Origin: a virus
Lineage: Duplodnaviria > Heunggongvirae > Uroviricota > Caudoviricetes
Virus record (IMG/VR): IMGVR_UViG_2548876950_000009
Strand: one strand, 5' to 3'
DNA: 6,293 nucleotides
Under the pieces are notes generated by a model. The model made no database searches, was not told the origin of the DNA, and worked only from the letters and a program-made list of their open reading frames with translations. A program made the translations under genes and the position numbers. Shown here piece after piece: positions 662-2,874 of the stretch. The first letter of the stretch is position 1; every line of letters begins with the position of its first letter.

Positions 662-1156
662 ATGGCTGGAACGGCGGGGCGTTCCGGGCGTCGCCCCAAG
701 CCAACGGCGCGCAAGGCGCTGGCCGGAAACCCCGGCAAGCGAGCCCTGAATAAAGATGAACCTGTTTTTACGCCCATCAAAGGTGTTGAGCCACCGGAGT
801 GGTTCGCTGAAGAAGATCTCCCTCTCGCCACGATCATGTGGCAACTGACAACCAAAGAACTCTGCGGTCAGGGCCTGCTGTGCGTGACTGACCTCGCGGT
901 GCTTGAGCGGTGGTGCGTGGCCTATGAGTTCTGGCGACGTGCCGTGAAAAATATTGCCAGCCAGGGCAACACCATTACCGGTGCAATGGGCGGTATGGTC
1001 AAAAACCCGGAGCTGACCGCCAAGAAAGAACAGGAGTCCGAGATGAGCAGCACGGGGGCAATGCTCGGACTCGACCCCAGCAGCCGCCAGCGTCTGATTG
1101 GCCTGGCGGGGAAGAAGAAAGCCACTAACCCGTTTCTGAAAATCATCGAGTCATGA
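662..1156 (+). CDS. terminase small subunit, P27-like family
   Basis: N-terminus [26 protein letters not shown] matches the characteristic GRPPKP...GNPGKR opening of P27-family small terminases. AGGAG at 646-650 lies upstream of ATG 662. The ORF track starts at GTG 653, only 2 nt from the SD, so 662 is preferred. TGA stop at 1154-1156 overlaps the next start as ATGA. Confidence 0.8.
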
Positions 1157-2475
1157 GCCGGAAATCTTACCCCAACGTAAATGCTGCCAATCAGTATGCC
1201 CGGGATGTCGTGCGCGGAAAGATTGTTGCCTGCCAGTTTGTGATTCAGGCCTGCCAGTGCCATCTTGATGACCTGATGGCGGAAAAAAGTAAGTCGTTTC
1301 GTTACCGCTTCGACAAGGACCTGGCTGAACGGGCCGCGAAATTTATTCAGCTGTTGCCGCACACCAAGGGTGAGTGGGCATTCAAACGGATGCCCATCAC
1401 GCTGGAGCCGTGGCAGCTATTTGTGATCTGCTGTGCGTTTGGCTGGGTCAATAAAGGCACCCGGTTGCGCCGCTTCCGGGAGGTGTATACCGAAATCCCC
1501 CGTAAGAACGGCAAATCAGCAATCTCTGCCGGTGTTGCCCTGTATTGTTTTGCCTGTGATAACGAGTTTGGCGCGGAAGTGTATTCCGGTGCCACGACAG
1601 AGAAACAGGCGTGGGAAGTCTTTCGCCCGGCGCGACTGATGTGTAAACGCACACCCATGCTGACGGAAGCGTTCGGGATTGAGGTTAACGCCTCAAACAT
1701 GAACCGTCCGGAGGATGGCGCGCGGTTTGAACCGCTGATCGGCAACCCCGGTGATGGTTCATCACCCCACTGTGCCGTGGTTGATGAATATCACGAGCAT
1801 GCCACCGATGCGCTTTATACCACAATGCTTACCGGGATGGGGGCGCGACGTCAGCCACTGATGTGGGCCATCACCACCGCCGGGTACAACATTGAGGGGC
1901 CGTGCTACGACAAGCGGCGGGAAGTCATCGAGATGCTCAACGGCTCGGTGCCTAACGATGAACTGTTCGGGATCATCTATACCGTTGATGAAGGTGACGA
2001 CTGGACCGACCCGCAGGTGCTGGAAAAAGCCAATCCAAATATTGGCGTGTCGGTTTATCGCGAATTTTTGTTAAGTCAGCAGCAGCGTGCGAAAAATAAC
2101 GCCCGTCTGGCAAACGTCTTTAAAACGAAACACCTCAATATCTGGGTGTCGGCACGTTCGGCGTATTTCAACCTGGTGAGCTGGCAGAGCTGCGAGGATA
2201 AATCACTGACCCTTGAGCAGTTCGAGGGGCAGCCGTGCATTCTGGCCTTTGACCTGGCGCGTAAGCTGGATATGAACAGCATGGCGCGACTTTATACCCG
2301 CGAGATTGACGGTAAAACGCATTACTACAGTGTGGCCCCGCGCTTCTGGGTACCGTATGACACGGTGTACAGCGTCGAGAAAAATGAAGATAGACGGACA
2401 GCCGAACGCTTTCAGAAATGGGTGGAAATGGGCGTCCTGACCGTTACCGATGGTGCAGAGGTGGATTATCGCTAG
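1153..2475 (+). CDS. terminase large subunit, N-terminal ATPase domain and first part of nuclease domain, ended by an in-frame TAG
   Basis: Walker A-like PRKNGKS (1498-1518), Walker B-like CAVVDE (1771-1788) and nuclease motif [14 protein letters not shown] 1153 overlaps the terS stop. The ORF ends at TAG 2473-2475 after 440 codons, too short for a complete large terminase. Confidence 0.85.
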
Positions 2476-2874
2476 GCCAAAGCGGCGAACAAAATCAGCC
2501 CGGTCAGTGAGTCACCCATCGACCCCTTCGGGGCGACCGGGCTGTCACATGACCTTGCTGATGAAGATCTGAATCCCGTCACTATCGTCCAGAACTTCGC
2601 CAATATGTCCGATCCGATGAAAGAGCTGGAAGCAGCGATTGAATCGGGACGCTTTCATCATGACGGCAATCCCATCATGACCTGGTGTATCGGCAATGTG
2701 GTCGGCAAAAACATGCCTGGTAACGATGATTTAGTGAAGCCCGTCAAGGAGCAGGCGGAAAACAAAATCGATGGTGCGGTTGCACTGATTATGACGATCG
2801 GTCGGGCAATGCTCAAAGAACCTGGCGATTTCCTCTCATCTCTTGATCCGGACGATGATCTCTTAATTCTATGA
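2476..2874 (+). pseudogene. terminase large subunit C-terminal nuclease segment, in the same frame immediately after the internal TAG
   Basis: Frame 1 stays open from 2476 to TGA 2872-2874 (track ORF 2605..2874 is part of this). It encodes the conserved C-terminal motifs [11 protein letters not shown] and [13 protein letters not shown]. Both pieces are frame 1 (1153 and 2605 are each 1 mod 3), so this is a nonsense codon, not a frameshift. Confidence 0.6.

Follow-up and report, generated by a model that had tools for sequence, protein, structure and literature searches.

An amber-interrupted large terminase gene in an SfV-like Escherichia coli prophage, probably a pseudogene formed by an out-of-phase 12-nt deletion

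Introduction

A tailed-phage sequence of 6,293 nt (IMG/VR record IMGVR_UViG_2548876950_000009; Caudoviricetes), referred to over its full length as the window, carries a large terminase gene (terL) in which a single in-frame TAG separates a long 5′ part from a shorter 3′ part that stays open in the same frame. How a stop codon came to lie inside this reading frame, and whether the gene can still specify a working terminase, are the questions that the locus raises. A preliminary description, made from the sequence alone, considered the interruption to be neither a frameshift nor a deletion and offered three explanations: a recent inactivating nonsense mutation in a prophage, an amber allele rescued by a suppressor tRNA of host or phage, or a sequencing error. 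Here, the window is compared with intact and interrupted relatives, with the loci used for comparison denoted by L numbers.

Results

Genomic setting of the interrupted gene

The window comprises the whole of contig AIBK01000443.1 in draft assembly GCA_000446745.2 and is part of an SfV-like prophage, with an HK97-type head and a contractile tail, in an E. coli strain. Positions 595–6242 are 98.7% identical to phage SfV with a colinear head and packaging module, and sister loci run on into sheath, tube and tape measure genes. The terL gene lies in a packaging context, with an HNH endonuclease gene and a P27-family small terminase gene (terS) upstream and portal, protease and capsid genes downstream (Table 1), and this order, including the small ORF that follows terL, is that of SfV and of the intact EC1515 prophage (L001). 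An HNH gene is the usual partner of HK97-type terminases. The small ORF (53 aa) overlaps terL at its stop and the portal gene at its start; RefSeq E. coli records list it as hypothetical, and it is unannotated in SfV. Promoter and terminator scans of the window returned the hairpins that follow the capsid gene as the sole signal exceeding shuffled expectation.

The left part of the module has a mosaic history of its own. Within the HNH region (186–555), ~370 nt hold 45 of the 49 substitutions that distinguish the window from EC1515, compared with four in the next 5.7 kb, which indicates a recombination boundary near 556–660, close to the presumed cos region. The first base of the SfV record aligns with window position 595, which may therefore represent the cos end, judging from this alignment. 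Between the HNH gene and terS, position 595 falls within a G+C-rich inverted repeat (GGGGAGGGGCGGGTC ... GACTGCCCGCCCC) with a T-run after it (556–625), a structure that may serve as the cos site, as a terminator or as both.

Table 1. Features of the window, with positions counted from its first nucleotide.
Feature	Position (strand)	Basis
IS629/IS1203 left terminal 54 nt (reverse complement)	1–54 (-)	100% match to IS1203 element end, O157:H7 PV15-279
HNH endonuclease gene, 116 aa	186–536 (+)	Pfam HNH, E = 3e-15; called at the same coordinates in L004; annotated 'HNH endonuclease' in EC1515
Counterpart of the left end of the phage SfV record, upstream of terS	595–661 (+)	blastn of the window against L002
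Small terminase subunit, P27 family, 164 aa, intact	662–1156 (+)	Pfam Terminase_4, E = 4e-21; 0 differences from EC1515
terL 5′ part, 440 codons and TAG	1153–2475 (+)	ATPase domain and first half of nuclease domain
Amber codon at the 12-nt deletion junction	2473–2475 (+)	DNA alignment with EC1515 and SfV; mafft difference list
terL 3′ remnant, 132 codons and TGA, same frame	2476–2874 (+)	Pfam TerL_nuclease positions 186–286; HK97 alignment
89-aa ORF, called as a separate 'terminase' fragment	2605–2874 (+)	First in-frame ATG 3′ of the TAG
Small hydrophobic ORF, 53 aa, between terL and portal gene	2871–3032 (+)	Conserved; hypothetical in relatives; no Pfam match
Portal protein, 408 aa, intact	3022–4248 (+)	Pfam Phage_portal, E = 1.5e-98; 1 SNP relative to EC1515
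HK97-family prohead protease, 200 aa, intact	4241–4843 (+)	Pfam Peptidase_S78; 0 differences from EC1515
Major capsid protein, 409 aa, intact	4854–6083 (+)	Pfam Phage_capsid; 0 differences from EC1515
Terminator-like hairpins 3′ of capsid gene	6109–6157 (+)	Putative rho-independent terminator annotated at the equivalent place in SfV
Head-tail connector gene, first 26 codons, then IS629 insertion	6162–6240 (+)	Full gene of 107 aa in L003 and L008
IS629/IS1203 right terminal 53 nt (reverse complement)	6241–6293 (-)	Exact match to L007:2858–2910

One terminase gene interrupted in frame

The amber interruption was found as first described, the frame from 1153 to 2874 consisting of 440 sense codons, the TAG, 132 further sense codons and a TGA (2872–2874). 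The assignment of the gene as a large terminase likewise holds, based on Pfam ATPase and nuclease profiles of HK97 type. Before the TAG, the product matches TerL_ATPase (PF03354; E = 5e-26, residues 86–256) and profile positions 4–165 of TerL_nuclease (PF20441); after it, the TerL_nuclease match resumes at profile positions 186–286. Because a single Pfam domain is split across the TAG in the same frame, the two parts belong to one terminase gene. Compared with every intact relative, the conceptual product is four residues short (572 sense codons compared with 577). No in-frame TAG occurs in the other genes of the window, all of which are uninterrupted, match their relatives in length and end, as the preliminary description had it, in TGA (n = 6) or TAA (n = 1).

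A 12-nt deletion as the origin of the stop codon

Using megablast, terL was found in 1,402 of 5,426 complete E. coli genomes. The intact gene in relatives spans 1734 bp and that of the window 1722 bp; the nine best matches are 99.3% identical (1722/1734), that is, identical except for a 12-base gap. Phage SfV terL (orf2) covers the same 1734-bp span at 98.2% identity, and over the whole gene the known copies in SfV and in E. coli prophages (for example EC1515, WP_044527610.1) range from 98.2% (SfV) to 99.3% (EC1515) nucleotide identity to the window. Both SfV and EC1515 encode an uninterrupted 577-aa protein, whereas the window lacks the 12 nt and possesses the TAG. In a DNA alignment with EC1515 and SfV, the one difference within ~190 nt was a gap of 12 nt that coincides exactly with the TAG.

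The ancestral codons TAT CGC TAC ATC CTC GAA GAG GCC AAA (Y R Y I L E E A K) correspond to TAT CGC TAG GCC AAA in the window. The deleted block is CATCCTCGAAGA or ACATCCTCGAAG, two equivalent placements that arise because an A flanks both sides, such that the breakpoint falls at T2473|A2474 or A2474|G2475 (1-nt ambiguity). As 12 nt is a multiple of three, the downstream reading frame was kept, and as the deletion ends inside codons 441 (TAC) and 445 (GAG), the TA of Tyr441 and the G of Glu445 were fused into TAG. The alignment thus overturns the earlier view that a deletion could be set aside and, with it, the implied single-codon nonsense substitution, the stop being a by-product of the deletion. 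It was also proposed that relatives would reveal the sense codon replaced at position 441; that codon is Tyr (TAC) in the ancestral sequence, and its first two bases remain in the TAG. A repeat-mediated origin of the deletion was considered and found unconvincing, with just 1 nt of microhomology (A) at the breakpoints and a weak 4-bp palindrome (CCTC/GAGG) inside the deleted region.

The TerL of phage HK97, a distant homolog, is gap-free through this segment, which makes the polarity of the deletion clear, with the window carrying the derived state. Over the stretch that begins with terS and ends with the capsid gene, three SNPs, the 12-nt gap and a single base of an intergenic T-run are all that separate the window from the intact EC1515 prophage (mafft). 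At the protein level, TerL is identical to the intact form over 133 positions after the stop and differs before it by R36C alone. By these counts the terL lesion is recent on the scale of sequence change, and an intact frame downstream of so recent a lesion needs no special explanation. The R36C difference results from CGC to TGC at window position 1258 (TerL codon 36), and all carrier loci that cover the position match the window.

Distribution of the allele

Exact-protein look-ups placed the 89-aa fragment on 23 contigs and the 440-aa product on five. The allele-bearing contigs that were inspected represent 12 independent samples (three NCBI assemblies, six SRA-run assemblies and three metagenome assemblies), and the junction was identical in 13 of 13 allele-bearing loci fetched. 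With the exception of L006, these loci differ from the window by ≤4 SNPs over the aligned part (up to 6.2 kb).

As a short contig from a fragmented draft assembly, the window could be suspected of an error of sequencing or assembly, the true sequence having the 12 nt or a sense codon. That option, raised in the preliminary description, is refuted by the recurrence of the junction in NCBI, SRA-run and metagenome assemblies from different projects, and the loss of 12 nt in non-repetitive sequence would be atypical of read errors; its probability is negligible.

The metagenome contig L006 (3006–5276) carries the allele together with an HNH/terS region of 94% identity and, over 1.5 kb, seven SNPs clustered at window 1743–1824. 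The contig could be a chimera of assembly, or the allele could have recombined into a different prophage background; L006 slightly blurs the picture of a single origin.

When a 91-nt sequence spanning the junction was searched against complete E. coli, 1,376 records matched and none of them contained the junction; all matches were at 88.3% (91/103 positions), with the 12 nt present. A 39-mer of the junction had no match in GTDB species-representative genomes or in JGI metagenome contigs. The one match in IMG/VR (L016) is isolate contig L010 in reverse complement; it represents a provirus called in an isolate genome and does not testify to packaged particles. For comparison, the intact 577-aa TerL belongs to a cluster of 8,998 members and is seen on 572 contigs. 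Across these collections the TAG allele is rare and confined to near-identical prophage copies, and is not a conserved feature of the family.

Consequences for the terminase protein

The N-terminal part of the product has the hallmarks of an ASCE ATPase domain, its Walker A motif (PRKNGKS) lying at aa 116 and its Walker B motif (VVDEYHE) at aa 209. HK97 TerL (PDB 6Z6D) was the sole solved structure matched by sequence (E = 1e-26), aligning over residues 80–557 with a phmmer score of 96.8 bits, as befits a distant homolog. It resembles the window in its two domains, Walker motifs, three nuclease Asp residues and accompanying HNH protein gene, and differs in that the HK97 protein is complete. 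In the HK97 nuclease, the catalytic centre consists of D302, D388 and D471, and K463 extends into the active site (PMC9410871). Residues were matched by counting positions in the printed alignment, whose chain numbering equals HK97 numbering plus 10: D302, D388, D471 and K463 correspond to D367, D461, D544 and K536 of the intact 577-aa protein. Codon D367 (nt 2251–2253) precedes the TAG, while D461 (nt 2521–2523), K536 and D544 (nt 2770–2772) are encoded after it, such that the three catalytic Asp residues do not occur on one polypeptide. The deleted residues Y441–E444 align with HK97 F368–A371, hydrophobic residues conserved in HK97 TerL, and E445, now the stop, aligns with D372, ~16 residues before the second catalytic Asp.

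With both the catalytic Asp codons and the Pfam match split by the TAG, the gene is a pseudogene of the family and not a functional member. The prediction that a 440-aa product would lack essential nuclease residues is borne out, as D461, D544 and the active-site Lys are all missing. By analogy with HK97, this product should not cleave cos DNA or finish packaging, and the prophage would be unable to package its own genome unless a terminase were supplied in trans. Some complete E. coli genomes possess up to four matching terL copies, and a second SfV-like prophage could trans-complement the product; this would be the rescue of a defective element and not a function of the stop codon.

The two parts of terL could in principle act as a split terminase, in which a 440-aa N-terminal piece works with a separately initiated C-terminal piece; gene callers do report the 89-aa ORF, which has a TerL_nuclease match. 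From the TAG to 2605, however, there is no in-frame ATG, GTG or TTG, and the 20 nt upstream of 2605 (TCGTCCAGAACTTCGCCAAT) contain no Shine-Dalgarno-like motif. The 89-aa piece would also lack the second catalytic Asp (D461), and no relative is organised in this manner. The lack of an earlier restart codon and of a Shine-Dalgarno motif, together with the missing D461, makes a working two-piece enzyme very unlikely, to the point that we assign it next to no probability.

Readthrough of the amber codon, through a suppressor tRNA of host or phage or through natural leakiness, might instead supply enough of a TerL four residues shorter to yield a viable phage. The intact downstream frame, whose protein is identical to the wild type, could be read in this manner, as could the apparently undamaged remainder of the prophage in some strains and the persistence of the allele through some diversification (six variable sites among ten loci). 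The downstream identity is nevertheless expected of any recent lesion. ARAGORN identified no tRNA genes in the window, in the allele-bearing loci L003 and L006, or in the intact EC1515 prophage, and an Rfam scan returned no match. To our knowledge, natural E. coli isolates normally lack amber suppressors. Programmed readthrough, suppression or reassignment of TAG would be marked by a conserved stop, a nearby tRNA with a CUA anticodon, and in-frame TAGs elsewhere, none of which was found: SfV, EC1515 and HK97 have sense codons throughout, the 1,376 complete E. coli records with this stretch retain the 12 nt, and the other window genes are free of in-frame TAG. A readthrough product would still lack Y441–E444, and the prophage is gathering IS insertions, as expected of a dead element. 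The suppressor or conditional allele entertained in the preliminary description is thus unsupported, and functional readthrough is left with a slim chance.

IS629 insertions and decay of the prophage

Both ends of the window lie in an insertion sequence, at which the contig stops. In L007 (PV15-279), the two ends are 1,310 bp apart around a gene annotated as 'IS3-like element IS1203 family transposase', identifying them as the termini of the 1,310-bp IS629/IS1203 element (IS3 family), which has a two-ORF frameshifted transposase; the window itself contains the ends alone. In L003, prophage sequence continues uninterrupted across the left insertion point, and in L003, L008 and L009 there is no IS and the prophage runs on into tail genes. 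Further allele-bearing loci have IS629 at the same right-hand site in the opposite orientation (6240; L011 and L012), inside the capsid gene (window 5974; L010 and L013), or inside the protease gene (~4405; L014). Six variable sites among ten loci divide these copies into sublineages, with the window and L005 in one and L011 and L012 in another. The sublineages, combined with the differing IS sites, place the deletion first and the IS insertions later and independently.

The insertion sites have features of their own. The left insertion (window 54/55; L003:790–830), located between a bor gene and the HNH gene, is centred in a near-perfect palindrome, CTTGTCCAACG|TGTTGGACAAG. At 6240/6241 (L011:10827, L012:7152), the right end of the IS adjoins the prophage in the window and L005, and the left end in L011 and L012. 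TGAAC, the first five bases of the IS terminus, also closes the target (...GCTTGAAC|TG...), and the site suggests an insertion hot spot next to an inverted repeat-like sequence. Homologous recombination between IS copies was ruled out as the source of the opposite orientations at 6240, as it would preserve the junction sequences.

In some carriers the terL lesion may be the sole one. In L008, the stretch that runs from the HNH gene as far as the tape measure gene is colinear with its counterpart in the intact EC1515 prophage; a blastn comparison of the two has 15 gap positions in four openings, one of which is the 12-nt terL gap, and the called genes of L008 are full length except for a neck/tail gene (165 aa compared with 168 aa in EC1515).

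The presence of the allele in multiple strains and its complete ATPase domain might indicate that the host benefits from keeping the truncated TerL, which could, for instance, act as an ATPase-only subunit and poison the motors with which related superinfecting phages package their DNA. Signs of selection are absent: the allele is rare and limited to near-identical copies, and IS elements are destroying neighbouring genes and the promoter-distal context. Late-operon genes are generally silent in a lysogen, which also counts against such a role. A host-useful TerL therefore has a very slim chance of being correct.

Discussion

The interrupted frame is, with high probability, a pseudogenised terL in a decaying SfV-like prophage, in which an out-of-phase 12-nt deletion created the TAG. 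Of the three explanations originally offered, an inactivating mutation in a prophage is the one that fits. Under this explanation, the terL of an SfV-like prophage would have lost the 12 nt with the frame kept and a TAG formed at the fused codon. Translation would end after residue 440, retaining the ATPase domain and the first catalytic Asp; with the other two catalytic Asp residues and the active-site Lys lost, there would be no cos cleavage and no finished packaging. The allele would have arisen once and now be common to a set of near-identical prophage copies, which independent IS629 insertions, two of them bounding the window contig, would be breaking further.

A small deletion followed by IS insertions is a familiar and ordinary pattern of prophage decay, already known in kind. 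As in the pseudogenes of cryptic or defective E. coli prophages, including those of IS-rich E. coli that decay through IS629, one small lesion in an essential morphogenesis gene is followed in sister strains by several independent IS629 insertions. The window does not differ from such pseudogenes in kind, its sole curiosity being a frame-keeping, out-of-phase deletion that mimics a point nonsense mutation. There is a slight chance that the allele is not simply dead, whether through trans-complementation by a co-resident SfV-like terminase, low-level readthrough, or a dominant-negative effect of the ATPase-only fragment on superinfecting phages.

With the terL pseudogene as the preferred reading, the two ORFs at 1153–2475 and 2605–2874 are to be annotated as a single terL pseudogene, a result that matters little beyond annotation. 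An in-frame stop with an intact downstream frame resembles a nonsense mutation or a suppressible amber, and the deletion junction is visible through alignment with relatives alone. In studies of prophage prediction and induction, the prophage is to be scored as packaging-defective. The shared deletion and the variable IS629 insertions are possible lineage markers for the E. coli strains that carry them.
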